The position numbers were made by a program, and so were the translations under genes. The notes under the pieces were generated by a model, which saw nothing but the letters and a program-made list of their open reading frames with translations, did no database searches and was not told the DNA's origin. From Oscillospiraceae bacterium (lineage in GTDB: Bacteria; Bacillota; Clostridia; Oscillospirales; CAG-272): a stretch of DNA of 64,000 nt. The stretch is taken from positions 12,800-76,799 of the forward strand of contig SVRP01000004.1 in the NCBI GenBank assembly GCA_015064735.1, read 5' to 3'. This document shows, piece by piece, positions 4,826 to 44,612 of the stretch. Position 1 is the stretch's first letter; every line of letters begins with the position of its first letter.

Positions 4826-7061
4826 TATTCAGATAATCGAATTCGGCGGACTTGAAAACCGTAGATTTACCCTTGATGGCGGATTGAATGTATTTGAGGG
4901 AGATAACGAAACCGGCAAAAGTACACTGTGGCTCTTTATAAAGTTTATGCTTTACGGTATGGCGAAAAAGGGAACGTCAGAGCGCGAACGCTCCATAAAC
5001 CGACTTTCTCACAGAGCATCGGGAACTATGACTCTTGAATGTGATAACGTAGAATACAGAATAGAGCGAAGCTTTAGCGAAAATTCCCGAGGAAAAGTAG
5101 TAACCTATAGGACAGACACGGGAGAGCGCGTTTTTGCCGATAAAGAGCCGGGAGAAGCACTTCTCGGTGTGGCGAAGGATATATTTGAGAGCAGCTGTGG
5201 AATAGGACAGTCAGCAGCCTCAAGCCTCGGAGGAGAAAAGGGAGCGGCTGCAATAAGAAATATCCTTTCTTCAGCCGACGAAAGCGTAGATATAGATAAA
5301 ATACAAAAGCGACTTGAAGCAATAAGAGTATATTACCGACATAAAAACGGTAAGGGCGGAAAGCTCTACGAAATGTCGGGAAAGATAAATCAGCTGGAGC
5401 AAAGACTCGAAAAGGCATCGGAAAACCGAATGAGAATAGCCGAAATTGAAGAAAAGCTTGAGAAAAACGCTCAGGTAACGGCGCAAAATGAGGAAAAATC
5501 CGAGGAAATAGGCGCGGTAATCGAGACAGCAAGAAAGCGAGAGGTACTGAGACGATTTGATGCTCTTGGTGAAAACCGACGGAAGAAGGCTTCGCTTGAT
5601 GAGCAAATAGAGATGCATAAATCCCGTCATGTAAGAAACGGATACATGCCGGCAGCTACCGACGTGGCAAATCTTAATATGGTTGCATCAAGCGCAGAGC
5701 GAATATCCGCAGCCGTTTCAAATGCCAAGGACGCTCTTTGTGAAGCTGAAAATAATATTCCCTTTGACAGGGAGCTTGCGCAAAAAGGCGAGCTTATAGA
5801 GAAAAACGGCGGTGCGATCGCGCTTAATGAACGTATAAGGAAATCAAAAAAGATCATATTGTTAGGCATCACGCTTTCAGGTATCGGAGTAAGTTTTGCC
5901 TTGGTTGCTGCATTTATTATATTTGTTTCGGTGGTAACGAAGCTTCCGGGAATAATTATTGCTGCCGTAGACCTCGCAATTTCTGCAATCGGTATTGCAG
6001 TTGCATGCGTATGGGGAGCAAAAAACAAGCGGATATGCAGAGAATACGGAAAGAAAAATATAAAAGAACTTTCCGAGTATATCGGTCTGTGTGCGGCTGC
6101 CTATGAAAAAAGAAACGAATATCAAAACAGCCTGCTTGAGCTTAATTCCGATCTCGTCAGAGCAGAGGAGCAAAAAAGGATAATAGAAGCCGACCTCGAA
6201 AGGGCAATAAGAAGGGTATCTCAGGACCTTCCCGTTTCAGCCGAAAACGCAAGGGCAGAGGCTGAGCGTATCAGAAATTTTCTTGATGAATATTCAGCTC
6301 TCGTAAGAGCAAAAGAAAGTATTTGTGCCGTAATTGAGAACGATGAGAAAATTCTTTCTGTATATGACGAGTCCGAGCTGAGAGCATTCGTTGCAGATAG
6401 CGGTGCAAATATTTCCGACAGAGAACTGAGGGATGCGGAAAATAAGCGAAAATTCTACGATGAACAAATAAGAGTGCTCCGCCAAAGAGACAATAATCTT
6501 CGAACAGAGCTTATAAATCTTAAGGCAACGGCGGAGGATCCTACGGCAATAGCCGACAGACTCGCAGAGCTGCGGGAAAGGCATGCGGAGGCGGATAACT
6601 ATTATGAAGCCGTGGTAACGGCAATTGACGGAATAGAAAGAGCTGCGGCATCACTTCAAGGCAATATAACACCGATGATTGGACACAAGGCGGCTAAGAT
6701 GATAGAATATATCAGCAACGGAGCATATTCCGCCGTGAATATGGGGAGAGACCTGAATATATCGCTTACCGACGGAGTTGGTCTTACTACAACAGAGGAA
6801 ATGATGAGTGGAGGAACAAAGGACGCATCCTATCTTGCACTTCGTATATCGCTTATGATGCAGATATTTGAAAAGGAATTGCCTCCGCTGATGATGGACG
6901 AGGTACTGTGTCAGCTTGACGGAACAAGAATGAAGCGAATTATCGGTCTTATCGGCGGGCTCTGCGAAAAGGAAATGCAGTGCTTGCTCTTTACCTGCCA
7001 CGAAAGGGAGGCAGAAGCATGCTCGGAGCTTGGAATAAAGGCTAAAATACACAAAATGTAA
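4812..7061 (+). CDS. AAA/SMC-like ATPase, YhaN/SbcC-like, with central hydrophobic hairpin
   Basis: N-terminal Walker A GDNETGKST, long coiled-coil-like E/K/R-rich regions and a C-terminal ABC-signature-like region. Overlaps the upstream gene by 14 nt. Confidence 0.85.
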   Translation: MKIIDIQIIEFGGLENRRFTLDGGLNVFEGDNETGKSTLWLFIKFMLYGMAKKGTSERERSINRLSHRASGTMTLECDNVEYRIERSFSENSRGKVVTYRTDTGERVFADKEPGEALLGVAKDIFESSCGIGQSAASSLGGEKGAAAIRNILSSADESVDIDKIQKRLEAIRVYYRHKNGKGGKLYEMSGKINQLEQRLEKASENRMRIAEIEEKLEKNAQVTAQNEEKSEEIGAVIETARKREVLRRFDALGENRRKKASLDEQIEMHKSRHVRNGYMPAATDVANLNMVASSAERISAAVSNAKDALCEAENNIPFDRELAQKGELIEKNGGAIALNERIRKSKKIILLGITLSGIGVSFALVAAFIIFVSVVTKLPGIIIAAVDLAISAIGIAVACVWGAKNKRICREYGKKNIKELSEYIGLCAAAYEKRNEYQNSLLELNSDLVRAEEQKRIIEADLERAIRRVSQDLPVSAENARAEAERIRNFLDEYSALVRAKESICAVIENDEKILSVYDESELRAFVADSGANISDRELRDAENKRKFYDEQIRVLRQRDNNLRTELINLKATAEDPTAIADRLAELRERHAEADNYYEAVVTAIDGIERAAASLQGNITPMIGHKAAKMIEYISNGAYSAVNMGRDLNISLTDGVGLTTTEEMMSGGTKDASYLALRISLMMQIFEKELPPLMMDEVLCQLDGTRMKRIIGLIGGLCEKEMQCLLFTCHEREAEACSELGIKAKIHKM

Positions 7062-8028: not shown

Positions 8029-9507
8029 ATGCATAAAAACGTACAAATTAAGCTTAATCAAAATGAATATCGCGAAAAGGTATATGCTTGCTGGTTGGGA
8101 AAGAATATAGGAGGAACCATGGGTACACCTTATGAGGGAACTCACGATTATCTCGACATTAAGGGCTTTGCGTCCGAAGCAGGCGCGCCTCTACCCAACG
8201 ACGACCTTGATTTACAGCTTGTATGGCTACATGCTGTTGAGCAGATAGGCAGTCGCGCCATAAACGCATCTACTCTCGGAGAATTCTGGCTTTCATTCCT
8301 TCCTCCTCACTGGAACGAATACGGCATAGGCAAAATAAATATGAAGAGAGGACTTATTCCGCCTCTTGCAGGAGATTACAATAACATCTGGAAGCACTCC
8401 AACGGAGCATGGATACGTACCGAGGTGTGGGCTTGTATGGCTCCTGCTTGTCCCGACATTGCGGCAAAATACGCAATTGAGGACGCAAAGGTAGACCACG
8501 GAATGGGCGAGGGTACGTATGCTGCGGCATTTGTAGCATCAATGCAGTCTGCGGCTTTCGTAGTCAAGGATATAAGAAAGTGCATAGACATCGGACTTTC
8601 TCAAATTCCCGAGGATTGCCGTATGTACGACAGTATCCGTATGGCTATCGACCTTTACGACGCAAAGACTCCCATTAAGGATGCGCGTAACGCTATCCAG
8701 CAGAGAAATGCCGATATAGGCAACGGTTGGTTTGAAGCCCCCTCTAATGTGGCATATGCAGTGCTTGGACTTCTTTACGGAGAGGGAGATTTCAAAAAGA
8801 CTATGATATACGCCATAAACTGCGGAGATGACACCGACTGTACCGGAGCGACCGTAGGCGCGACACTTGGAATTCTCGGCGGAATGGAGATGATACCTGA
8901 GGATTGGAAGGCTCATATCGGAGACGATATCGTAACTATCTCCATAGACCTTGGCGGTGTGTGCCGTAAGGTCCCCAAGACCTGTACAGAGCTTACCGAG
9001 CGTGTAGTTGCCCAGACTCCCCACCTTCTTTTCGATAACGACGCACCTGTTGTTCTTACCGACGGCGAAAATGAGATCCCCGAAAATATCGATGAAATCA
9101 TAGCTTCCTCGTGTAGCACAAGAAATATTCTTGAAGCAACCAAGCCGTATTCCATGCACTTTGACTTTACCTTTGCAAGCGCGGAGGTTACTCTCGACAG
9201 AGCACCCGATATAGCTCCTAACGGAGAAATAGGTGTTCATATAGACTTTATAAATAACCAGCTTGTTTACGATAGAGGCTACTACAACCTTAGCCTCCGT
9301 TGGTGGCTTCCCGATGGATTTGTTGCAGAGGGAGGCAGACAGACTCTCATGCTTCCGAGAAAGGATAAAAAGCAGACGGGTATGATAAGCGTTGACTTCA
9401 CCTTGAAGGCAGGCGAGCAGGTAGCATCCTCTAACCGTTGTGTTCTTGAGGTTGTAGCAGAGGGCAGACATACTCCTATGTATATACCTGTATTGCTTTT
9501 AGGTTAA
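8029..9507 (+). CDS. ADP-ribosylglycohydrolase family protein with about 170-aa C-terminal extension
   Basis: GKNIGGTMGTPYEG, NDDLDLQ and NCGDDTDCTGATVGATLG are family hallmarks. Confidence 0.85.
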   Translation: MHKNVQIKLNQNEYREKVYACWLGKNIGGTMGTPYEGTHDYLDIKGFASEAGAPLPNDDLDLQLVWLHAVEQIGSRAINASTLGEFWLSFLPPHWNEYGIGKINMKRGLIPPLAGDYNNIWKHSNGAWIRTEVWACMAPACPDIAAKYAIEDAKVDHGMGEGTYAAAFVASMQSAAFVVKDIRKCIDIGLSQIPEDCRMYDSIRMAIDLYDAKTPIKDARNAIQQRNADIGNGWFEAPSNVAYAVLGLLYGEGDFKKTMIYAINCGDDTDCTGATVGATLGILGGMEMIPEDWKAHIGDDIVTISIDLGGVCRKVPKTCTELTERVVAQTPHLLFDNDAPVVLTDGENEIPENIDEIIASSCSTRNILEATKPYSMHFDFTFASAEVTLDRAPDIAPNGEIGVHIDFINNQLVYDRGYYNLSLRWWLPDGFVAEGGRQTLMLPRKDKKQTGMISVDFTLKAGEQVASSNRCVLEVVAEGRHTPMYIPVLLLG

Positions 9508-35956: not shown

Positions 35957-36009
35957 GGTATGAATGCTTGTAGGACGGTTCACAGAGAGTGGACGGCAAA
36001 CGCATATAG

Positions 36010-36038
36010 GGCTGACAGAGGAAAAGCTGTCAGCCTTT
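36010..36038 (+). terminator. hairpin (weak terminator) of the GGCTGAC family
   Basis: GGCTGACAG-loop-CTGTCAGCC followed by TTT. The stem sequence is related to the three hairpins at 39236, 43430 and 44005. Confidence 0.5.
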
Positions 36039-36070
36039 AATAAATAAGAATTTGACGGAGGTAGCTGATA

Positions 36071-36400
36071 ATGAAAGAACTTGTTGCTGCAAGCATTCTT
36101 TTCGCAGTATCCATCTTTTTGTTTTTTCTGAGTGTCCGTTCTTTTATGGAAAAGGGCTTTCTTTTTAACAATGCTTACATTTATGCATCCAAGCAAGAAA
36201 GGAAAAAAATGAATAAAAAGCCACATTATCGCCAATCGGCTATTGTTTTTTTATTGCTTGGTTTGAGTTTTTTATTAAATGCTCTCACCGTACTGCTTAA
36301 AGTAAATTGGATTTTTTACATAGCGATAGCGGTTGTCATAGTTGCTCTCATATATGCTATTGTATCAAGCATTACAATTGAGAAAAGTAATAAACAATAA
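36071..36400 (+). CDS. small membrane protein (DUF3784-like pattern)
   Basis: 109 aa with 3-4 TM segments. RBS GGAGGT. AT-rich relative to its neighbours. Confidence 0.65.
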   Translation: MKELVAASILFAVSIFLFFLSVRSFMEKGFLFNNAYIYASKQERKKMNKKPHYRQSAIVFLLLGLSFLLNALTVLLKVNWIFYIAIAVVIVALIYAIVSSITIEKSNKQ

Positions 36401-36403
36401 CAT

Positions 36404-36427
36404 TGTTACAAAATCCAATTTGTCGTG
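36404..36427 (+). repeat. junction motif copy 1 (TGTTACAAAATCCAATTTGTCGTG)
   Basis: Starts 4 nt after the stop codon. Shares AAAWTCCAAYTTGT with 38596, 39203 and 43969. Confidence 0.8.
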
Positions 36428-36460
36428 TAGATAGCGATGGCAGTTATTGTGTAAAAAATA

Positions 36461-36489
36461 TTGACATAGACGGCAAAATATGATATACT
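36461..36489 (+). promoter_or_regulatory. SigA-type promoter of ktrBA
   Basis: TTGACA-17 nt-TGaTATACT. Confidence 0.6.
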
Positions 36490-36509
36490 TATAAAAAATA
36501 ACGATGATA

Positions 36510-36556
36510 AAAGGAACCAGCTGACTGAAGAGGACCTTGGTTCCTTTATGCTTTTT
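36510..36556 (+). promoter_or_regulatory. terminator-like hairpin in the ktrB leader (possible attenuator)
   Basis: AAAGGAACCA (36510-36519) / TGGTTCCTTT (36538-36547) followed by ATGCTTTTT. ATG is at 36570. Confidence 0.4.
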
Positions 36557-36569
36557 AGAGGAAAATCTT

Positions 36570-37931
36570 ATGGTTAGGAAAAAGAAATTCACGCTTTCAA
36601 CCACGCAGATCATATTGCTCAGCTTCCTCGTTACCATTTTCATAGGAAGCGGACTTTTGGCATTGCCAATCAGCTCTGCAAGCAGAGAAGCGGTGCCGTA
36701 TCTCGATGCGCTTTTCACGGCAACCACCTCCACCTGTGTGACGGGACTCGTTACGCTTACCACAGTATCCACATGGAGTGTGTTCGGGCAGATCGTCATT
36801 CTGCTTCTCATACAGATCGGCGGTCTTGGTATCATCACCATTATGTCGGGACTGATGCTTCTTCTCAACAGAAAAATGGGCATCGGCGACCGTTTGCTCA
36901 TTCAAGATGCCTTCAATCTCAATACGATGTCTGGGCTGGCGAAATTCGTTAAAAACGTATTGTTCGGCACGCTGATTATCGAAGGGATAGGAGCTGTCCT
37001 GTATATGCTTGTGTTCGTTCCCGAGTTTGGGGCTGTGGGCATCTGGATATCGGTGTTCAATTCGGTTTCCGCTTTCTGTAATGCCGGCATTGACATTATC
37101 GCGGAAAACAGCCTTTGCAATTACGCAACCAATCCCTTGATCAATATCGTCACCTCTGCGCTCATCATTCTCGGCGGTCTCGGATATATCGTGTGGTGGG
37201 ATGTTCTCCATGTGATTAAAAGCCGTTCACCAAAGAACCGCAAGATATTCAGGCACTTGACCTTGCACTCAAAGATTGCCATTACGGTTACGGCAGGACT
37301 CATTCTTGTCGGTGCAATTCTTATATTTATTTTTGAATATGCTAACCCATTAACCATTGGAGAGATGTCCTTGTTCGATAAAATTCAGGTGTCCTTCTTC
37401 CAATCGGTTACCACGAGAACGGCAGGCTTTGCCTCTGTTCCGCAAGAGAATTTGACAAACGCTTCATCTGCCGTATCTATTATCTTGATGCTGATAGGCG
37501 GTTCACCAGTAGGAACGGCAGGCGGTATGAAAACGGTAACCATTACCATCCTTATCTGCTCGGCATTGGCTACCATTAGAAATAAAAACAGCGCAACCTT
37601 GTTCGGTCGCCGTGTTTCCGAGGTATCGGTGAAAAAGGCTGTTGCGGTAGCGATTACGTTTCTTACAATATGCTCCGCATCAACTATACTATTGATGGCA
37701 ACGAGCAATGCCTCCGCTCTTGATGCAGTCTATGAAACGGTCAGCGCGACTGCAACCGTCGGACTTTCAAGAAATCTGACGGCAACGCTGAACACCTTTG
37801 GAAAGCTAATTATCATCGTAACGATGTATTTCGGCAGAGTCGGTCCCATCTCGCTTGCGGTGGCGCTCGGCAGTAAAAACGAAAGTCAGAACGTCATTTC
37901 CGAGCCGACGGAAGATATCAGTATAGGATAA
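36570..37931 (+). CDS. ktrB: TrkH/KtrB-family potassium uptake membrane subunit
   Basis: Repeated pore-loop-like segments (TSTCVTGL, SAFCNAGIDI, TTRTAGF, TATVGLS). ATG 36570 behind AGAGGA. Confidence 0.88.
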   Translation: MVRKKKFTLSTTQIILLSFLVTIFIGSGLLALPISSASREAVPYLDALFTATTSTCVTGLVTLTTVSTWSVFGQIVILLLIQIGGLGIITIMSGLMLLLNRKMGIGDRLLIQDAFNLNTMSGLAKFVKNVLFGTLIIEGIGAVLYMLVFVPEFGAVGIWISVFNSVSAFCNAGIDIIAENSLCNYATNPLINIVTSALIILGGLGYIVWWDVLHVIKSRSPKNRKIFRHLTLHSKIAITVTAGLILVGAILIFIFEYANPLTIGEMSLFDKIQVSFFQSVTTRTAGFASVPQENLTNASSAVSIILMLIGGSPVGTAGGMKTVTITILICSALATIRNKNSATLFGRRVSEVSVKKAVAVAITFLTICSASTILLMATSNASALDAVYETVSATATVGLSRNLTATLNTFGKLIIIVTMYFGRVGPISLAVALGSKNESQNVISEPTEDISIG

Positions 37932-37942
37932 AGGAGAAGATT

Positions 37943-38593
37943 ATGAAAGCAAAGAAAACATACGCCGTCTTCGGACTTGGAAGATACGGCACAGCTGTGT
38001 CAAAAGAGCTTGTAGAGAACGGTATGGAGGTCATTGCAGTCGATACAGAGGAAAGGATCGTCAACGATGCAGCGGCATATCTGCCCGTGTGCAAATGTGC
38101 TGACGTGACTGATGCGGAGGTCATTTCTCGTCTTGGAATAGGTAATATCGATACCGTTATCGTTTGTATGGCGGGCAATCTTGAAGCGAGCGTGATGGCA
38201 GTCACGCTTTGCAAGGAGGCAGGCGTTAAGACCGTTATCGCAAAATGCGCCAATGAGATGCACCAAAAAATACTGCTTCGCGTGGGTGCGGATCAAGTGG
38301 TTTTTCCCGAAAACGAGTCTGGTATACGCCTTGCTAAGAACCTCTTAAGCTCCGGATTTATTGATATGATCTCTCTGTCAAGGGACGTGTCCATGGTTGA
38401 GATCGATGTGAAGGATGAGTGGTGCGGCAAGACCTTAATTGAATTAAATCTCCGAAAAAAATACGGATTTAATATCGTTGCAATCAAGAAAGGCGAGGAT
38501 GTCTCCGTAAATATCAATCCGGAGCAGGAACTTGATGCAGAAACAACTCTGATCGTTATTGCGAATACTACAAAGCTTGGAAAGTTAAAATAA
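37943..38593 (+). CDS. ktrA: TrkA/KtrA-family potassium uptake regulatory subunit (RCK)
   Basis: YAVFGLGRYG Rossmann (TrkA-N) plus TrkA-C. 216 aa. Confidence 0.88.
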   Translation: MKAKKTYAVFGLGRYGTAVSKELVENGMEVIAVDTEERIVNDAAAYLPVCKCADVTDAEVISRLGIGNIDTVIVCMAGNLEASVMAVTLCKEAGVKTVIAKCANEMHQKILLRVGADQVVFPENESGIRLAKNLLSSGFIDMISLSRDVSMVEIDVKDEWCGKTLIELNLRKKYGFNIVAIKKGEDVSVNINPEQELDAETTLIVIANTTKLGKLK

Positions 38594-38595
38594 GC

Positions 38596-38614
38596 TGTCA
38601 AATTCCAATTTGTA
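38596..38614 (+). repeat. junction motif copy 2 (TGTCAAATTCCAATTTGTA)
   Basis: Starts 3 nt after the ktrA stop codon. Confidence 0.7.
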
Positions 38615-38708
38615 TAATAAAGCTAAATAGAACGATGTGACGGATAGTGTCGTGACTTTTTGCGGTGGCGATGTTATAATGAACTCACAAAAGCAAGGAG
38701 GTTGCATT

Positions 38709-39200
38709 ATGACTTTTGGTGAAAAATTAAAAAAGCTGCGAAACGACAATCAGCTTACTCAAGACGAGTTGGCTGAAAAGATCTATGTCACAAGAACAGC
38801 TATCTCAAAGTGGGAAACTGACAAAGGATATCCAAGTATAGATAGCTTAAAACAACTCTCTAATCTTTTTCATATCAGTATAGACGAGTTAATATCCGAT
38901 ACCGATATCGAGAATAAGCGACTGCTTGATGAAGCGCAAAGTCGCAAATTTTATTGGTTCGCTATTGCTTGTCTTGCAGTAGCAACGGTCAGCGCAGTAA
39001 TCAACTATTTCACAAAGATACCATATCTCAACATTATCAGTTTTTCGGGAGTGATTGGATACATCGTGTTAGGTTTGCTTTCCAAGCCAAAATACAAGAG
39101 GATAGCTGCGAGGAAAATGGTGCTGCCGTATGTGCTTTCTCGGTTAGTGATACTTGCAGTTATCATTGCGGTTATAGCTTACGCATTTATTGAAACATAA
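38709..39200 (+). CDS. XRE-family HTH regulator with C-terminal membrane segments
   Basis: MTFGEKLKKLRNDNQLTQDELAEKIYVTRTAISKWETDKGYPSIDSLKQLSNLF is a Cro/C1 HTH. Two or three C-terminal TM helices. ATG 38709 behind AGGAGG. Confidence 0.85.
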   Translation: MTFGEKLKKLRNDNQLTQDELAEKIYVTRTAISKWETDKGYPSIDSLKQLSNLFHISIDELISDTDIENKRLLDEAQSRKFYWFAIACLAVATVSAVINYFTKIPYLNIISFSGVIGYIVLGLLSKPKYKRIAARKMVLPYVLSRLVILAVIIAVIAYAFIET

Positions 39201-39202
39201 AC

Positions 39203-39296
39203 AAATTCCAACTTGTCGTGATGATGATAAAGAGCGAGGGCTGACGGAAAACAACCGTCAGCCCTCAAAATTTGAGTCGCAGAAAGCAAAGAAAAG
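39203..39296 (+). repeat. inter-gene linker repeat, copy A (junction motif + GAGGGCTGAC hairpin + AAAATTTGnnTCGC...CAAAGAAAAG tail)
   Basis: Junction motif at 39203-39220. 12-bp hairpin 39236-39247/39255-39266. Tail to 39296. Aligns with copy C over about 95 nt. Confidence 0.85.
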
Positions 39297-39324
39297 CAAA
39301 TTCGAAGAAATTCACAAAATATAC

Positions 39325-39353
39325 TTGTTTTTCTTTCAAAAAAGGTGTATAAT
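39325..39353 (+). promoter_or_regulatory. candidate promoter of the thi operon
   Basis: TTGTTT-17 nt-TATAAT preceded by TG. Confidence 0.45.
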
Positions 39354-39365
39354 AATCGTACAATT

Positions 39366-39472
39366 AAACAGCGGGGAGCTTGATGCGCCTATGAGCGCGG
39401 ACAGGCTGAGAGGAAGGTAAGACCTTCGACCCATTAACCTGATTTGGATAATGCCAACGTAGGGATGCCTGA
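39366..39472 (+). promoter_or_regulatory. TPP (THI-box) riboswitch
   Basis: GGGGAGC...CTGAGA...ACCC..AACCTGAT.TGGATAATGCCAACG.AGGGA conserved THI-element blocks. Confidence 0.9.
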
Positions 39473-39490
39473 ACAATAGTGTATTCATTT

Positions 39491-39524
39491 GGAAGCTACC
39501 CAAAAAGGTAGCTTCCATTTTTTA
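39491..39524 (+). terminator. riboswitch-controlled intrinsic terminator
   Basis: GGAAGCTACC-CAAAAA-GGTAGCTTCC followed by ATTTTTTA. Confidence 0.8.
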
Positions 39525-39592
39525 TTGGTTCGTAGGTTTCCGCTGAATGATTGAATATTTTTATTCCGATCAAATCGGAGAAAGAGGCAAAA

Positions 39593-40414
39593 ATGCTTGG
39601 AAACTGTCTTGAAAACGTAAGAAAGACCACGCCACTCGTGCATAACATCACGAATTATGTTACCGTTAACGACGTGGCAAATGTGCTTCTCGCTTGTGGC
39701 GGTAGCCCTATTATGTCGGACGAGCCCGACGATGTGGCAGACATCACTTCCATCTGCGGAGGACTCAACATCAATATCGGTACGCTCAACAAGCGCAGCA
39801 TTGAAGCAATGTTTGTAGCCGGAGCGAAGTCTAACGAGCTTGGACATCCCGTTCTGCTTGATCCCGTTGGTGCAGGCGCAAGCGCGCTTCGCACTAACAC
39901 CGCAGTCGAAATTATGGAGAAAATCAAACTCGATGTTATCCGCGGCAACATCTCGGAGATCAAAACACTCGCGCTTGGAAGCGGCACAACCAAGGGCGTG
40001 GATGCGGATGCGGCAGATACCGTGACCGAGGATAACCTCGATCAGATGGTCGCCTTTGCCAAGAGCTTTGCCGCCAAGAGCGGTGCCGTTGTTGCCATCA
40101 CAGGCGCTATTGACCTTGTGGCAGATGCCGATAAGTGCTACGTGATCCGCAACGGTCGCCCCGAAATGAGCCGTATCACAGGCACGGGCTGTCAGCTTTC
40201 GGGAATCGCTACTGCATACGTTGTAGCCAACCCCGATAACAAGACCGACGCTGTTGCCGCCGCTGTGTGCGTCATGGGTCTTGCAGGTGAGATCGGCGTT
40301 GCTAATATGGCAGAGGGCGAAGGAAATTCCTCGCTCCGTAACCGCATTATTGATGCCATCTACAATATGGATGCCGAAACGCTGAATCAGGGAGCAAAGT
40401 ATGAAGTACGATAA
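39593..40414 (+). CDS. thiM: hydroxyethylthiazole kinase
   Basis: PLVHNITNYVTVNDVANVLLACGGSPIM hallmark. ATG 39593 behind GGAGAAAGAGG. Confidence 0.92.
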   Translation: MLGNCLENVRKTTPLVHNITNYVTVNDVANVLLACGGSPIMSDEPDDVADITSICGGLNINIGTLNKRSIEAMFVAGAKSNELGHPVLLDPVGAGASALRTNTAVEIMEKIKLDVIRGNISEIKTLALGSGTTKGVDADAADTVTEDNLDQMVAFAKSFAAKSGAVVAITGAIDLVADADKCYVIRNGRPEMSRITGTGCQLSGIATAYVVANPDNKTDAVAAAVCVMGLAGEIGVANMAEGEGNSSLRNRIIDAIYNMDAETLNQGAKYEVR

Positions 40415-41042
40415 AAAAGACCTACTTTTGTATGCGGTAACCGACCGTTCCTGGCTTGGTGAGCAGACCCTCTACGAGCAGGTGGAGGAGGCTCTCAAGG
40501 GCGGCGCGACCTTCGTTCAGCTTCGTGAAAAGGAGCTTGACGATGACACCTTCCTTGCCGAAGCTATTGAGATACAAGAGCTTTGCAAAAGATACAATGT
40601 GCCTTTTGTAATCAACGACAACGTGGAGATCGCAAGGAAAATGAACGCAGACGGTATTCATGTTGGACAGAGCGATATGGAGGCAGGTGACGTCCGCGCC
40701 CTTCTCGGTGAGGATAAGATACTCGGCGTATCGGCACAGACCGTAGAGCAAGCCATCCTTGCTGAGCAGCGCGGTGCGGACTATCTCGGCGTTGGCGCGG
40801 TCTTTCACACAGGCTCAAAAGCTGATGCCGATGACGTAAGCCATGAAACGTTGAAAGCGATTTGCCAAGCCGTAAGTATTCCTGTTGTCGCTATCGGCGG
40901 GATCGGTAAGCATAACGTGCTAAAGCTTAGCGGAAGCGGCATCTGCGGAATTGCCGTGATCAGCGCGATCTTCGCAGCCGAGGACATCACGAGCGCGACT
41001 GCAGAGCTGAAGGCTCTCACCGAACAGGCGGTAGCGAAATGA
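40401..41042 (+). CDS. thiE: thiamine-phosphate synthase
   Basis: LYAVTDR..., VQLREK, INDNVEIA, and DGIHVGQSD blocks. Confidence 0.93.
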   Translation: MKYDKKDLLLYAVTDRSWLGEQTLYEQVEEALKGGATFVQLREKELDDDTFLAEAIEIQELCKRYNVPFVINDNVEIARKMNADGIHVGQSDMEAGDVRALLGEDKILGVSAQTVEQAILAEQRGADYLGVGAVFHTGSKADADDVSHETLKAICQAVSIPVVAIGGIGKHNVLKLSGSGICGIAVISAIFAAEDITSATAELKALTEQAVAK

Positions 41043-41674
41043 TCAAGGGCGCGATATTTGACCTTGACGGAACGCTCCTTGATTCGATGTCCATATGGGA
41101 TACCATCGGAGAGGACTATCTTCGATCCCTTGGTATCGAGCCGAGAGAGAATTTAGCCGAAACATTCAAGACCTTCACCTTGGAAGAATCCGCCGAATAT
41201 TATCGAACACATTACGGCGTAACCTTGTCGGTTGCGGAAATCGTGGACGGTGTAAACCGAATGATCGAGGACTTTTATCGAAATACAGTATCTCTTAAAA
41301 AAGGGGTTTCCGAGTTCCTTGAACGGCTATCAAAGGACGGAGTGAAGATGTGTGTTGCTACGGTAACTGACAAGTATCTCGTAGAAGCCGTTTTGACTCG
41401 CCTGAAGGTCAGACAATACTTTGGCGAGATCATAACTACCGCCGAGGTGGGTTGTGGCAAGAACAAGCCGACGATTTATCGCACGGCTCTTGCTTATCTT
41501 GGAACGGAAAAGCACGAAACCCTCGTATTTGAGGACGTGCTCCACGCTCTGATGACAGCAAAGAATGACGGCTTTCCCGTTGCGGCAGTCTATGACAAGC
41601 ACGAGTTAAGGCAGACGGAAATGAAAGCAAACGGTGATTATTATATTACCAATTACGAAACAGTAAAAATATAA
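41039..41674 (+). CDS. HAD-IA family phosphatase embedded in the thi operon
   Basis: MIKGAIFDLDGTLLDS motif I, KPTIY, and FEDVLHAL motif. Confidence 0.85.
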   Translation: MIKGAIFDLDGTLLDSMSIWDTIGEDYLRSLGIEPRENLAETFKTFTLEESAEYYRTHYGVTLSVAEIVDGVNRMIEDFYRNTVSLKKGVSEFLERLSKDGVKMCVATVTDKYLVEAVLTRLKVRQYFGEIITTAEVGCGKNKPTIYRTALAYLGTEKHETLVFEDVLHALMTAKNDGFPVAAVYDKHELRQTEMKANGDYYITNYETVKI

Positions 41675-41742
41675 AACACAGCGGCAGACCGGGGGCACCA
41701 CTCTCTGTCGCTCAAGAAAAAATAATGTTTAGGAGAAAAAAT

Positions 41743-42546
41743 ATGAAAACAGCATTATCAATCGCGGGAAGCGACTCCTGCGGAGGCGCCGGTATTCAAG
41801 CAGATATTAAGACAATGACAATGAACGGTGTTTATGCCATGAGCGCAATAACAGCACTCACCGCACAGAACACGACCGGCGTAAGATCAATTATGGAGGC
41901 AACTCCCGACTTTTTGAAGGATCAGATCGATGCGGTTTTTGAGGATATCCGTCCCGATGCCGTAAAAATTGGAATGGTATCTTCTGCAAAGCTTATTAAG
42001 GTGATTGCCGAAAGACTTGCCTATTACAAAGCGAAAAACATTGTAGTCGATCCCGTAATGGTGGCAACAAGCGGTTCTGAATTGATGAAAACCGATGCGG
42101 TATCGGTGCTGACAAGAGAGCTTCTTCCTCTCGCTACTCTTGTTACGCCCAATATCCCCGAAGCAGAGGTCTTGTCAGGGCAGTCCGTTCACACGAAAGA
42201 AGATATGGAACGTGTGGCGAAGATGATAGGCGATACCTACGGATGCGCTGTGCTTCTAAAGGGCGGTCATAGCATCAATGATGCAAACGATCTTCTGTAT
42301 GCAAACGGCAACTACAAATGGTTCAGCGGTAAGCGTATCAACAATCCCAACACACACGGCACGGGCTGTACGCTTTCGTCTGCAATAGCATCAAACCTCG
42401 CAAAGGGATATGACCTTGAAACCTCTATCAGGAGAGCAAAGGATTATATCTCGGGCGCACTTGCGGCGATGCTCGACCTCGGGCAGGGCTCAGGACCTAT
42501 GAATCATGCTTTTGATCTGAACGGAAAATATGCGGAGGAAAACTGA
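41743..42546 (+). CDS. thiD: hydroxymethylpyrimidine/phosphomethylpyrimidine kinase
   Basis: ALSIAGSDSCGGAGIQADIKT and GTGCTLSSAIA motifs. ATG 41743 behind AGGAG. Confidence 0.93.
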   Translation: MKTALSIAGSDSCGGAGIQADIKTMTMNGVYAMSAITALTAQNTTGVRSIMEATPDFLKDQIDAVFEDIRPDAVKIGMVSSAKLIKVIAERLAYYKAKNIVVDPVMVATSGSELMKTDAVSVLTRELLPLATLVTPNIPEAEVLSGQSVHTKEDMERVAKMIGDTYGCAVLLKGGHSINDANDLLYANGNYKWFSGKRINNPNTHGTGCTLSSAIASNLAKGYDLETSIRRAKDYISGALAAMLDLGQGSGPMNHAFDLNGKYAEEN

Positions 42547-42547
42547 A

Positions 42548-43210
42548 ATGAAATTGACAACTCAAATGTCGGCAGCCGTAGAAGATATCTGGGCTGAATA
42601 TTACACGCACCCCTTTGTCAAGGGAATTGAAAACGGTACACTTGATCAAAAAAAATTCAGATACTATATCAAGCAGGACTATTTATATCTGATTGAGTAC
42701 ACCAAGGTGTTCGGCATCGGTATTGCCAAGGCGAAAAGCACCGAGGTAACTAAGCTGTTCGCATCCTACATACAGCTTTTGACTGACGGTGAAATGGACA
42801 TCCATAGAGGTTATATGGGCAGGTTCGGTGTTACCGAAGCGGAGCTTGCAGACACACCTCGTGCGCTTGATAATCTTTCCTATACCTCGTATATGCTCCG
42901 TGTAGCCTATGAGGAAGGAGAAGCAGAGGTATTGGCGGCGATCCTTTCCTGTGCTTACAGCTATGAGATGATTGCCCGTAATATCGTCAAGAACAATCCT
43001 AATTCCGTCAATCACGAGTTTTACGGTGATTGGATCAAGGGCTATGCAAGCGATGAGTACAGCAAAGAAAACAGCGTGCTTTTTGAAATGCTTGAAAAGC
43101 TGACTGCACATTACACCGACGAGCAGAAGCAGCACATCGTGGATATCTACGTTGCTTGCTCACGCTACGAGCTTGCTTTTTGGAATCTGTCTTGGAATAT
43201 GAGCAAATAA
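42548..43210 (+). CDS. tenA: thiaminase II / aminopyrimidine aminohydrolase
   Basis: HPFVKGIENGTLDQKKFRYYIKQDYLYL is the TenA/PqqC-like signature. Confidence 0.9.
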   Translation: MKLTTQMSAAVEDIWAEYYTHPFVKGIENGTLDQKKFRYYIKQDYLYLIEYTKVFGIGIAKAKSTEVTKLFASYIQLLTDGEMDIHRGYMGRFGVTEAELADTPRALDNLSYTSYMLRVAYEEGEAEVLAAILSCAYSYEMIARNIVKNNPNSVNHEFYGDWIKGYASDEYSKENSVLFEMLEKLTAHYTDEQKQHIVDIYVACSRYELAFWNLSWNMSK

Positions 43211-43213
43211 GAT

Positions 43214-43309
43214 ATGAAAAGGTGTGTAATTGTAGGCTGTTCTGATATAACCGCTTACGATAGGATCAACGGCATCATAACAGGCGAAGATTATGTTATC
43301 TTCTGCGAT
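43214..43309 (+). pseudogene. N-terminal fragment (about 32 codons) of a thiamine pyrophosphokinase (thiN/TPK)-like gene
   Basis: MKRCVIVGCSDITAYDRINGIITGEDYVIFCD resembles TPK N-termini (M..C.IV..G.......I...D.II.AD). After codon 32 the frame enters repeat-derived sequence and stops at 43438. No TPK-like continuation in any frame. Confidence 0.4.
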
Positions 43310-43316
43310 AGATTAT

Positions 43317-43354
43317 CAAAACGCAATATCTGCATCGCTGTAGTCAAAGAAAAG
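43317..43354 (+). repeat. partial, degenerate copy of the linker-repeat tail
   Basis: CAAAACGCAATATCTGCATCGCTGTAGTCAAAGAAAAGG versus CAAAATTTGCATCGCTGAAAGCAAAGAAAAGC (copy B). Confidence 0.65.
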
Positions 43355-43429
43355 GCTCGCCGAGCTGATAAAAACGATGAAAGCCGAAATCGCGGAGATG
43401 AAGAAACAAGCAAAGAATGCATAAGGAAA

Positions 43430-43486
43430 GAGGGCTGACCAAAACGGTCAGCCCTCAAAATTTGCATCGCTGAAAGCAAAGAAAAG
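43430..43486 (+). repeat. linker repeat, copy B (hairpin + tail only)
   Basis: 11-bp hairpin 43430-43440/43446-43456, then AAAATTTGCATCGCTGAAAGCAAAGAAAAG. Confidence 0.85.
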
Positions 43487-43495
43487 CCAAATCGG

Positions 43496-43524
43496 TTGAA
43501 AAGTTCATAGAAATATGATATAAT
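43496..43524 (+). promoter_or_regulatory. SigA-type promoter of the GNAT gene
   Basis: TTGAAA-17 nt-TGaTATAAT. Confidence 0.6.
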
Positions 43525-43560
43525 AAACTCATCGAATAAGAATTTGACGAGGTAATCAAT

Positions 43561-43965
43561 ATGAACATTGAATATAAAGTCATTCATGATTTTGAGTGTG
43601 AGGATTTGGAAAGGTTGTTTCTTTCGGTTGAATGGTCATCAGGACATTTTCCCGACAAGCTTGCAATTGCAATGAAAAATTTTAACACAGTATATTCTGC
43701 TTGGGATGGAACTAAGCTTGTTGGAATGATATGTGTTATGGATGATGGAATAATGAATGCCTATGTTCATTATCTTCTTGTTGACCCTGATTATCACGGA
43801 AAAACAATCGGCAGAACACTTGTAAATATGGTAAAAGAAAAGTATAAGGATTATATGCGAATTGTGGTTGTTGCTTATGATGATGAGCTGCATTTTTACA
43901 AAGCGTGTGGTTTTGAAAAGAGTAAAAATGCTTCTCCTATGTTTATAACTTCCTTGTGGACATAA
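43561..43965 (+). CDS. GNAT family N-acetyltransferase
   Basis: 134 aa. LLVDPDYHGKTIGRTLV (Q/RxxGxG/A-like acetyl-CoA motif). C-terminal YKACGFE. Confidence 0.88.
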   Translation: MNIEYKVIHDFECEDLERLFLSVEWSSGHFPDKLAIAMKNFNTVYSAWDGTKLVGMICVMDDGIMNAYVHYLLVDPDYHGKTIGRTLVNMVKEKYKDYMRIVVVAYDDELHFYKACGFEKSKNASPMFITSLWT

Positions 43966-43968
43966 TAC

Positions 43969-44066
43969 TGTTAAAATCCAATTTGTCGGTATGATGATAA
44001 GAGCGAGGGCTGACAGAAATCAATCTGTCAGCCCTCAAAATTTGCATCGCAGTAATCAAAGAAAAG
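43969..44066 (+). repeat. linker repeat, copy C (junction motif + hairpin + tail)
   Basis: Junction motif TGTTAAAATCCAATTTGTCGG, GATGATAAGAGC, 12-bp hairpin 44005-44016/44025-44036, and tail AAAATTTGCATCGCAGTAATCAAAGAAAAG. Confidence 0.85.
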
Positions 44067-44191
44067 AGATTTTGAAAAGTACTAAGAAAATAAATAAAAA
44101 AAACGCTCGAAACCGGTGTCTTGTGCCGAGAGAAAGCGTTTTGCTGAAAACTGTGGTCTTTTGGCAAAAGAGCAAGTTGGGGATAATAAAC

Positions 44192-44231
44192 AAAAAATCA
44201 GTCCTAATCTTACGAAAAGGACTGATTTTTT
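44192..44231. terminator. bidirectional intrinsic terminator (ends the tRNA-Pro transcript on the minus strand)
   Basis: AAAAAATCAGTCCT...AGGACTGATTTTTT. Confidence 0.8.
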
Positions 44232-44251
44232 GGTGCATAAAGCACAAATTT

Positions 44252-44327
44252 TGGTCGGAGTGACAGGATTCGAACCTGCGGCATCGACGTCCCAAACGTC
44301 GCGCGCTACCAGCTGCGCCACACCCCG
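44252..44327 (-). tRNA. tRNA-Pro (anticodon UGG), CCA encoded
   Basis: Minus strand reads CGGGGTGTGGCGCAGCTGGTAGCGCGCGACGTTTGGGACGTCGATGCCGCAGGTTCGAATCCTGTCACTCCGACCA. The 7-bp acceptor, D, anticodon (loop TTTGGGA) and T arms (GGTTCGAATCC) all fold. 76 nt. Confidence 0.95.
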
Positions 44328-44345
44328 ATGTGTGAAAAATATTCG

Positions 44346-44375
44346 ATTTTTAGGTCATTTTCCGTAAGTGGTCAA
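44346..44375 (-). promoter_or_regulatory. candidate promoter of tRNA-Pro
   Basis: Minus strand reads TTGACC-17 nt-TAAAAA(T), about 19 nt upstream of the mature 5' end. The -35 is part of a tandem GTTTGACCAC x2. Confidence 0.45.
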
Positions 44376-44423
44376 ACATGTGGTCAAACCGCTTTTACAG
44401 AGGATTTTGCGAGAGAGCAGAGT

Positions 44424-44469
44424 GCCGAAAAAGTCAGTGTTTACAAGGGTTTTCGGCGTTTTTTGTTTT
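44424..44469 (+). terminator. plus-strand terminator-like hairpin with no obvious upstream gene
   Basis: GCCGAAAA...TTTTCGGC followed by GTTTTTTGTTTT. Confidence 0.5.
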
Positions 44470-44495
44470 CTCGAAGAGTGTAGTCGGTGTCCTGC

Positions 44496-44533
44496 TCCCA
44501 AACGTCGCGCGCTACCAACTGCGCCACACCCCG
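44496..44533 (-). pseudogene. fragment of a second tRNA-Pro (positions 1-38 only)
   Basis: 37/38 identity to 44290-44327 (one D-loop difference). Homology stops exactly at the 3' edge of the anticodon loop. Confidence 0.85.
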
Positions 44534-44612
44534 AAAAATATAAATATTTTACCACGCCTTGATATTATATCAAAACCTTTCACTTTTGTCAACTGATATT
44601 TTACTTTTATTC

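Follow-up and report, generated by a model that had tools for sequence, protein, structure and literature searches.

The subject of this study is a stretch of 64,000 nucleotides (referred to below as the window) of contig SVRP01000004.1 from an Oscillospiraceae bacterium (assembly GCA_015064735.1, positions 12,800 to 76,799), in which two small genes are enclosed by the same short sequences: a leader site (L) upstream and a trailer site (T) downstream. Comparison of these sites with their counterparts in other genomes makes it, in our estimation, moderately probable that L and T are two variants of one ~20-bp joint, and that they represent the recombination joints of an integron-like cassette system. 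The existence of the cassettes and of their joints, as a phenomenon, is well supported. The loci outside the window that were used for comparison are designated by L-numbers (L006, L093, etc.), which should be distinguished from L, the leader site.

Leader and trailer sites of the window

A preliminary description of this DNA had claimed that two genes with unrelated products share the same flanks. The products were assigned by Pfam to a DUF3784 membrane protein and a GNAT acetyltransferase, and sequence matches confirmed the common 5′ leader and 3′ trailer around both genes. The first leader (AATAAGAATTTGACGGAGGTA, 36043-36063) ends 7 nt before the ATG, and the second (AATAAGAATTTGACG-AGGTA, 43535-43554) 6 nt before the ATG. 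They differ by a single base (an indel), and dinucleotide shuffles of the window produced no leader match. The trailers share an exact 16-mer, AAAATCCAATTTGTCG (36410-36425 and 43973-43988), which begins 9 nt and 7 nt past the TAA, respectively. Two additional, degenerate trailers were found, both directly after stop codons, i.e. of trkA (38597-38613) and of a gene encoding a membrane protein with an XRE-type helix-turn-helix (HTH) domain (39201-39218). The window contains four copies of T (at 36410, 38600, 39203 and 43973) and two copies of L. With up to three mismatches allowed, the trailer 16-mer has four matches in the window versus 1.5 expected, which is marginally above chance; support for the trailer therefore comes from its position right after stop codons and its recurrence in other sequences, and not from the statistics of the window.

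The family of L and T sites

The T site was sought as AAAWTCCAAYTTGTCG in one genome per species, which yielded at least 120 loci. Among the matches listed, 87-88 carry AAATTCCAATTTGTCG (two counts differ slightly), and the hosts of these are nearly all gut or rumen Clostridia (Oscillospiraceae, Acutalibacteraceae, Faecousia and others), together with a few Akkermansia and one Streptococcus. In the same set of listed matches, T is often located in the first or last blocks of contigs, an open reading frame (ORF) of at least 60 aa stops no more than 15 nt upstream of T in 34 of 88 sites (3 of 33 for chance pattern variants), and in 11 of these the first base of the stop codon is the nucleotide just before the motif (e.g. 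TAAATTCC). Only 7 exact copies of T were present in IMG/VR, and a phage GenBank collection gave no informative T matches.

The consensus of T, (GTT)CGACAAATT-CC-AATTTGTCG(AAC), is a perfect palindrome, arranged as 12-2-12 in some copies, whose right flank (A-R-C-W-G) is more conserved than the left one. Its predicted fold has a free energy of -9.6 kcal/mol (z = -5.7). The statement that no attC-type palindrome is present has to be corrected in this respect: the trailer consensus of the family is a perfect palindrome of 20-26 bp, and it is degenerate only in the copies of the window, which are relics. T is usually trailed within 10-30 nt by a terminator-like hairpin.

The L consensus is CGATAAATAAGAATTTGACGGAGG-N7-ATG, which may also be written as (C)GATAAATAAGAATTTGACGGAGG, 7-10 nt and the start codon. 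Divided into halves, it reads CGATAAATA-AG-AATTTGACG, followed by GGAGG-N7-ATG, and it is mostly placed 10-14 nt past a TATAAT box. The suspected relationship between the leader and trailer cores was borne out, as the L and T consensus sequences are identical at 15 of 20 positions and differ mainly in the centre (AAGA vs TCCA). A search with the arms only, performed on 359 kb not chosen by motif, revealed essentially these two centre classes.

Several unusual arrangements of the sites were also noticed. In Akkermansia (L090 4739-5150, L004 5216-5565, L110 4288-5170 and L053), inverted T-type palindromes (GG vs CC centre) enclose a GC-rich foldback of 330-860 nt with long internal inverted repeats, and the outer flanks are inverted repeats as well; a Pfam search of the neighbours of this structure in L090 detected no recombinase domain. 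It could be an invertible or miniature inverted-repeat transposable element (MITE)-like element using the same site. The left half of the leader is tandemly duplicated in L181 (719-756; GCGATAAATAAGAATTTGCGATAAATAAGAATTTGTCG). In GC-rich metagenome-assembled genomes (MAGs) of Oscillospiraceae (L038 41-420, L016 2605-2700 and L079), T adjoins a repeated hairpin, gtcattccgaaccag..ctggtgtgggaatc, and in L038 the unit occurs in tandem, 322 nt apart.

Cassettes and hybrid joints

Many further ORFs with the same flanks were found outside the window. L-ORF-T units are present, besides the two of the window, in L006, L009, L011, L024 (an isolate), L039, L045, L063, L081, L093, L094, L167, L196, L199 and L237; in total, they occupy more than 15 independent loci of MAGs of Oscillospiraceae and other Clostridia, as well as IMG/VR contigs. 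They also occur in the Enterococcus plasmid pJXZ076-99K (L121) and in 85 Campylobacter pTet plasmids carrying tet(O) (L202). Units with the apramycin resistance gene apmA were identified in plasmids of Enterococcus and Staphylococcus and in one Streptococcus genome.

The cassettes are small (ORFs of 100-270 codons), mostly lack a promoter and form arrays of 1-4 units. Their cargo is diverse and includes (i) enzymes, i.e. GNATs, glyoxalase, MazG, PNPOx, SAM methyltransferases, a cyclase and ApmA, and (ii) DUF3795, DUF3784, TfoX_N and OmdA proteins, lipoproteins and small membrane proteins.

All four combinations of half-sites were found: L, T, T-left/L-right and L-left/T-right. The hybrid T-left/L-right (e.g. 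GAAATTCCAATTTGACGGAGG) joins consecutive ORFs in L093 (6339), in the phage-like contigs L123/L124 (10524) and in L199 (8017), and the reciprocal hybrid L-left/T-right is located upstream of apmA and in L170. The latter locus has the appearance of an empty site, with a promoter, the site and a terminator but no ORF; a search for unoccupied platforms in one metagenome scan returned mostly L variants still ahead of an ORF, and only L170 looks empty. The order promoter, L, ORF, (hybrid, ORF), T is observed in the window, L094, L123, L196, L199 and L121. The alignments show the extent of a cassette: starting just right of AATTTG, it contributes the Shine-Dalgarno sequence and reaches as far as the left arm and centre of the following T, which its stop codon abuts or overlaps (as in the example given above). 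They also show where cassettes are placed, namely after a promoter ending in L-left and before T-right and a terminator, with extra ones stacked via hybrids.

Two of the plasmid loci deserve a comment. In the Campylobacter pTet plasmids (L202 1972-3745), the DNA downstream of tet(O) looks Gram-positive in origin, and its L-ORF-T unit, which holds a 140-aa ORF with no Pfam match, lies right after the stop codon of the preceding ORF. In the Enterococcus faecalis plasmid (L121 6001-6600), a 5′-truncated tyrosine recombinase frame starts a few bases past the T located downstream of apmA.

Homology breaks within the sites

When strains, species or plasmids are compared, their homology ends in the motifs. 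The trkH-trkA module of the window is 89% identical to that of a related species (L093) over exactly the segment from T1 to T′ (Table 1), and both neighbours of the module differ. At T′, homology to L093 stops after ..CCAATTT and homology to L199 begins: the adjoining module, encoding an XRE-HTH and transmembrane protein (XRE-TM; 38598-39201), is 91.7% identical in the cargo array of L199, where it is preceded by TfoX_N and not by trkA. A contig of the same species (L229) leaves the homology with the window inside T3, after ..CCAA. The GNAT ORF is 97.8% identical in L193, with homology starting at L, a different promoter ahead and a different T variant behind.

Analogous breaks were observed among the other loci: (i) L128 and L237 have a common gene end and CGATAAATAAGAATTTG, followed by different cassettes, (ii) the cyclase cassette is found behind three different upstream sequences, (iii) a module is common to L063 and L237 up to T, and the sequences are divergent after it, (iv) L237 and L239 are common after T and different before it, and (v) one module is preceded by an L-centre site in L063 and by a T-centre site in L237. 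In the alignment behind (i) and (ii), a row of L239 placed on the wrong strand was left out. In plasmid pKKS49 of S. aureus, ..CGACAAATTCCAA is kept after apmA and is followed by unrelated DNA. The position of this break agrees with the published extent of similarity, according to which the DNA common to pKKS49 and pAFS11 is limited to apmA with 72 bp on its upstream and 64 bp on its downstream side (PMC6157413).

Counted over all comparison loci, 25 of the 75 internal ends of homology are no more than 12 nt away from an L or T site. The same platform is found with different cassettes, and the same cassette on different platforms. These comparisons jointly place the putative exchange point between the centre of the site and the end of AATTTG, and they show L and T to be probable recombination joints. 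These results, like the further ORFs with the same flanks, the diverse cargo and the site lacking an ORF, support the idea that the ORFs are exchanged as cassettes, with a short conserved core as their boundary and a logic similar to that of integrons.

The platform: a tRNA-integrating mobilizable element

Comparison of related loci shows that one recurrent home of the cassettes is the cargo slot of a mobilizable element that integrates at tRNA genes in gut Clostridia. The order of its components is: MobL relaxase, int1, int2, hairpin and tail, cargo slot, (hairpin and tail), tRNA-Pro, gtaagtggtcaaacatgtggtca and a partial tRNA. Within the slot, a promoter with L is followed by the cassettes and T. 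The int2 gene encodes a protein of 474-478 aa with the domains PF14659 and PF00589, for which over 7,600 homologues were counted, the majority of them on short contigs. A hairpin of the hairpin A type (Table 1) follows the int2 stop codon in all elements inspected. In four of the seven distinct elements inspected (L094, L196, L199 and L204) the L/T-bounded cargo comes directly after int2; L198 has other cargo, and L200 and L214 have none. The tRNA-Pro gene occupies an equivalent position in 9 related elements. Carrying its own tRNA-Pro and ending in a partial tRNA, the element has what is predicted to be a classical tRNA-targeting attachment.

The window retains the int2 relics, the element-end sequences, tRNA-Pro and the partial tRNA copy of this element; the related loci have MobL, int1 and int2. 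The window is a remnant of the element and not an element. Upstream of the DUF3784 leader, a 36-nt relic of int2 abuts hairpin A. Upstream of the GNAT leader lie, in order, int2 relic B, its hairpin and tail, and a TG-extended promoter; L191 keeps an intact int2 end at the position of relic B, with flanks 99% identical. The unit composed of the promoter and L-left is also conserved in L063, L196, L199, L204 and L136.

Some further properties of the element were recorded. L204 (6500-6770) and L209 (4030-4300) are identical up to ..gagtcccgaac and then continue with different tRNA remnants. The int2 product of L094 (2805-4241) has an extra C-terminal module resembling its own N-terminal arm-type DNA-binding domain (..GTGCVYQVNDTLWEGSFFPRLPYGKRKKFNVYAKTRDECEKLL..), which is unusual for a tyrosine recombinase. 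Many metagenome contigs that carry int2 (L215 and L218-L223) end 45-150 nt past its stop codon, inside the adjacent tRNA or the hairpin-tail region; such ends would be expected if the end of the element occurs in multiple copies or contexts and assemblies break there.

Organization of the window region

The features of region 35972-44534 are summarized in Table 1. On the basis of its sequence, the region reads as the decayed remains of two cargo slots beside tRNA-Pro, in which deletion has reduced the integrases to relics of 36-75 nt.

Table 1. Predicted features of region 35972-44534 of the window
Feature	Position	Strand	Evidence or comment
int2 relic A, 3′ coding region of second tyrosine recombinase	35972-36007	+	blastn, 92% over 38 nt to L191 713-750
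Hairpin A (GGCTGACAG..CTGTCAGCC), int2-terminator type	36008-36035	+	79% match to hairpin 44006-44035
Leader site L1, ATAAATAAGAATTTGACGGAGGTA, supplies Shine-Dalgarno	36040-36063	+	
Cassette ORF 1, DUF3784 small membrane protein	36071-36400	+	Pfam PF12650, E 3e-12
Trailer T1 (core 36410-36425), left arm degenerate	36404-36425	+	L093 homology starts here
trkH-trkA module, bounded by T1 and T′	36461-38593	+	Pfam; own promoter 36461-36489 (promoter scan)
Trailer-type site T′ (GTCAAATTCCAATTTGT) after trkA stop codon	38595-38615	+	
XRE-HTH and transmembrane module, own promoter (ORF 38709-39200)	38652-39200	+	Pfam HTH_3
Trailer site T3 (ACAAATTCCAACTTGTCG)	39201-39218	+	same-species contig L229 diverges inside
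Hairpin B and tail B	39235-39296	+	
Tail C, no hairpin, fused to int2 relic B	43324-43354	+	
int2 relic B, last 25 codons	43347-43421	+	tblastn, 88% over 25 aa, E 3e-7, vs L191 int2
Hairpin D and tail D, region downstream of int2	43430-43486	+	
Platform promoter TTGAAA-17-TATAAT, TG-extended, 11/12 match	43496-43524	+	10 nt upstream of L2
Leader site L2, AATAAGAATTTGACGAGGTA	43535-43554	+	L193 and L192 homology begins here
Cassette ORF 2, GNAT acetyltransferase	43561-43965	+	Pfam PF00583
Trailer T4 (core 43973-43988), left arm degenerate	43969-43988	+	
Hairpin E and tail E, second copy beyond cargo	44006-44066	+	likewise in L094, L196, L198, L204
tRNA-Pro (UGG)	44252-44327	-	ARAGORN and Rfam
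Element-end sequence gtaagtggtcaaacatgtggtcaaac	44364-44389	.	also at right element ends in L204, L209, L214, L200
39-nt partial tRNA copy, attR-like	44496-44534	.	L204 and L209 diverge inside partial tRNA

A module of ~60 nt, consisting of a hairpin (GGGCTGAC..GTCAGCCC) and a tail (TCAAAATTTG..TCGC.G.A..CAAAGAAAAG), is present at 39235-39296, 43430-43486 and 44006-44066, i.e. after two trailers and the int2 relic. The weak resemblance to the leader core that the preliminary description had pointed out at 44247-44264 proved to be coincidental: TGGTCGGAGTGA belongs to tRNA-Pro, of which it forms the CCA end and acceptor stem. A search of Rfam (gathering threshold and E<=1) found no family at L, T or the hairpin-tail module, the matches in the window being tRNA and a thiamine pyrophosphate (TPP) riboswitch.

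The thi operon controlled by this riboswitch sits between direct tail copies (39266-39296 and 43324-43354). Comparison of the junction of tail C and the int2 relic with the intact int2 of L191 revealed a GAAAAG microhomology, which suggests a deletion junction. A sub-threshold match to the Rfam family SSRC10, a Streptococcus small RNA, covers T3 and hairpin B (39197-39271; 24.5 bits vs a gathering threshold of 56, E 0.32) and is probably due to chance.

Proposed mechanism

If L and T are recombination joints, the cassettes would be inserted, exchanged and stacked by site-specific recombination, most likely by a recombinase acting in trans, as in the attI x attC recombination of integrons. T would fold as a perfect hairpin in the single-stranded DNA made during conjugative transfer, and the junction of a circular cassette would read CGACAAATTCC joined to AATTTGACGGAGG. 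A single-strand, attC-like or other non-classical mechanism is favoured over classical double-strand recombination because (i) L and T have different centres yet interchangeable left partners, (ii) the T consensus would form a strong hairpin in single-stranded DNA and (iii) the platform travels by conjugation.

The candidate enzymes are the paired tyrosine recombinases of the element and the large serine recombinases beside some T sites. The latter were found 0.7-2.3 kb downstream of T in five loci (L237, L239, L074, L089 and L091). In L237 (6049-9678) and L239 (4790-8416), T is placed 0.7 kb upstream of two tandem large serine recombinases, and in L074, L089 and L091 it is placed 2.3 kb upstream of one; in all five loci they are on the T-right side, and their orientation is the same.

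A number of observations weigh against recombination at L and T by a dedicated system. Classical double-strand recombination by tyrosine or serine recombinases would not tolerate the differing centres of L and T. The early remark that no integrase is in view stands as far as intact genes are concerned: no recombinase encoded in the 64-kb window was detected with a hidden Markov model of tyrosine recombinases built from the element integrases or by phmmer with large serine recombinases. It has to be qualified by the presence of two relics of the int2 3′ end, the longer one of 25 codons, at positions where related contigs have the gene intact. Most T loci have no recombinase within 8 kb, and a survey of ORFs no more than 3.5 kb from 120 of the listed T loci found XRE-TM genes (10), tyrosine recombinases (4) and large serine recombinases (3), none of which co-occurs with T consistently. 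No circular or excised cassette was observed in the assembled sequences. The four T copies of the window fold no better than shuffled sequences (T1 folds weakly, at -1.9 kcal/mol), and a hairpin substrate is not supported by covariation, because the arms of T vary without compensatory changes. The T-left halves behind the GNAT gene differ between the window and L193, and that boundary is the stop codon and not a fixed exchange point. In L198, the cargo (HTH-HipA) is enclosed by duplicates of the hairpin-tail module (6440-6490 and 8085-8135), with no L or T; these repeats, a second level of repetition, may be the real insertion site in such elements, a second insertion site or an arm-type site region. 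Finally, homologous recombination, too, can leave breakpoints at short conserved sequences.

Alternative explanations

Homologous recombination at conserved expression signals is the main rival, although we regard it as rather unlikely. L would be a 5′ untranslated region with a ribosome-binding site, located behind a promoter, and T a stop-proximal 3′ element in front of a terminator. Together with the conserved promoter and hairpin-tail modules around them, they would act as patches of homology for RecA-dependent or homology-facilitated recombination following conjugation or transformation, with no dedicated recombinase. Several properties of the sites suit this explanation: the GGAGG of L precedes the start codon by 7-10 nt, a TATAAT box is usually found 10-14 nt ahead of L, a terminator-like hairpin usually follows 10-30 nt past T, no recombinase is consistently adjacent, and one boundary is at a stop codon and not in T. 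The mobilizable elements also offer longer conserved flanks, with ~60 nt for the promoter and L-left and ~60 nt for the hairpin and tail. In the best-resolved comparisons, however, homology ends within the 20-bp site, with no longer shared flank, and the same 20-mer is kept in Akkermansia, Streptococcus, Enterococcus and Campylobacter without the surrounding promoter and terminator modules. Moreover, neither a ribosome-binding site nor a stop signal needs a perfect 12-2-12 palindrome, and the sites match no Rfam family.

The three remaining explanations fit the data poorly. T could be an operator for a regulator (e.g. the XRE-HTH membrane proteins) or a functional RNA hairpin, carried along with the accessory genes that it regulates. 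A perfect palindrome is typical of the operators of dimeric HTH proteins, and XRE-TM genes are the commonest neighbour of T (10 of ~90 loci listed, and also in the window). Nevertheless, T is located after stop codons and not in promoters, and most T sites have no XRE neighbour. The arms show no covariation and the window copies do not fold, while the hybrid joints, the supply of the Shine-Dalgarno sequence by the L variant and the breakpoints inside the site would be left unexplained. We judge this explanation improbable.

It is more improbable still that T and L are selfish short repeats of the repetitive extragenic palindromic (REP) or MITE type, spread by a REP-associated tyrosine transposase (RAYT)-like or other transposase and landing after stop codons by chance. 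As in REP elements, a short palindrome lies directly downstream of stop codons; T is often near contig ends, and the Akkermansia foldbacks are bounded by inverted T copies. On the other hand, the 64 kb contain no more than four copies, which are clustered within 8 kb and are all located at module boundaries. Unrelated genes are separated by the sites, which do not interrupt collinear sequence; the L variant goes together with ribosome-binding sites, and single sites were seen to have neither target-site duplications nor terminal inverted repeats around them.

Chance, or a single local segmental duplication followed by gene replacement, is hardly credible: the trailer 16-mer is, as stated above, only marginally more frequent in the window than in shuffles, and both cassettes share a larger ancestral context (int2 relic and hairpin), but the leader has no match in shuffles, and the explanation is refuted by the recurrence of the same flanks outside this genome, where they enclose unrelated ORFs in genomes, phage-like contigs and plasmids that come from four phyla and number in the dozens.

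Other known sequences were also compared with the sites. Group II intron ends, IS200/IS605 ends and the initiation of mutagenic homology (IMH) sites of diversity-generating retroelements were dropped, as none of their signatures is present in the DNA downstream of T, which is heterogeneous. CodY, Spo0A, LexA and dif boxes were dropped as well, as their half-sites differ. The 0A-box-like sequence TGTCGAA would occur, as estimated from base frequencies (A 59%, then A 34%), in at most about one third of the sites, and it is present in none of the window copies.

Significance

Integrons are regarded as essentially absent from Gram-positive bacteria. If L and T are the joints of an integron-like system, the dominant gut Clostridia would have a separate system of cassette capture. 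This would explain how small accessory and resistance genes (apmA, GNAT-type) move across phyla, as units of ~0.4-1 kb, from one mobilizable element, phage or plasmid to another. It would also indicate that an activity of site-specific recombination exists whose target is defined and very short, and it would permit the mining of cassettes from metagenomes by means of CGAYAAATnnnnATTTGWCG and the context of ribosome-binding sites and stop codons. Even as patches of homology, the motifs would mark predictable breakpoints of gene flow in gut Bacillota.

A bolder proposal, which we put forward tentatively as a possibility, is that gut Bacillota possess an integron analogue of independent origin. 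In such a system, a platform composed of a promoter and L, located beside paired tyrosine recombinases on mobilized elements, would capture, stack and exchange promoter-less cassettes via T, probably in conjugative single-stranded DNA, and would already have exported resistance genes such as apmA to Enterococcus, Staphylococcus, Streptococcus and Campylobacter. Literature searches with the T sequence (both strands) and by concept, made in one library, found no description of the sites or the system, which is absence of evidence only.

Comparison with known systems

The system works like an integron but lacks the defining features of one, i.e. IntI and attC. In common with integrons, it has (i) small, mostly promoter-less, single-ORF cassettes and a platform promoter beside a tyrosine recombinase gene, (ii) a palindromic site at the 3′ end of the cassette, often holding the stop codon, (iii) a conserved core to the right of the exchange point (G/TTRRRY in integrons and /AATTTGWCG here, the stroke marking the exchange point), (iv) hybrid joints between stacked cassettes and (v) similar types of cargo, including GNATs, glyoxalases, DUF proteins and resistance enzymes. 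In contrast to attC, an imperfect palindrome of 57-141 bp conserved in structure, T has 20-26 bp, is conserved in sequence and lacks RYYYAAC/GTTRRRY. The integrases of the platform (PF14659 and PF00589) are arranged in tandem, co-directionally with the cassettes, and are not IntI: their best solved relatives are XerA, the Int of Tn1549 and XerD, and IntI4 was matched only at E 1e-7, over the catalytic motif. In addition, the platform is part of a mobilizable element located at a tRNA gene, the hosts belong to the Bacillota and the arrays are short.

The pdif sites are 28-bp XerC/XerD sites (11-6-11) found in alternating orientation. The pdif modules of Acinetobacter plasmids resemble the cassettes in being discrete, often encoding resistance, being bounded by short conserved sites and relying on recombinases apparently encoded elsewhere. 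L and T differ from pdif in having a 9-2-9 (or 8-4-8) palindrome, direct orientation and two centre classes, and in being tied to ribosome-binding sites and stop codons.

Phage morons and the hot spots of integrative conjugative and integrative mobilizable elements likewise hold accessory genes as units of promoter, gene and terminator, either in the interval from the integrase to the attachment site or between the modules of a phage (as in L123, L094 and L199), and the element described here is itself of the conventional tRNA-targeting mobilizable type. No moron or hot-spot cargo is known to have a conserved 20-bp joint in common across unrelated elements and phyla, or to be stacked via hybrids.

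The heterospecific lox/FRT cassette exchange used in the laboratory provides an analogy only: a cassette is placed between related sites with different spacers (AAGA vs TCCA here), and differing spacers would permit exchange but make excision less favourable. No Cre- or Flp-like enzyme was identified, and, unlike in lox/FRT exchange, left halves of both the L-centre and the T-centre type join the same right-hand module.

Of the short repeats, REP elements, which number tens to hundreds of dispersed copies per genome and come with a RAYT gene, share with T the palindrome immediately downstream of stop codons, and they differ from the low local copy number, the role at module boundaries and the paired L variant observed here, where no RAYT gene was seen. 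Unlike in MITEs, the units hold intact, unrelated ORFs, L and T are direct and not inverted repeats, and there is no target-site duplication. The crossover sites of serine invertases and resolvases (hix/gix/res-type) consist of two inverted 12-bp half-sites around a crossover dinucleotide that is identical in both partners. T may be a site of this type, given its 12-2-12 consensus with an asymmetric CC centre and the large serine recombinases near some T sites; against this, the centre of L is not that of T, yet L is interchangeable with T-left.

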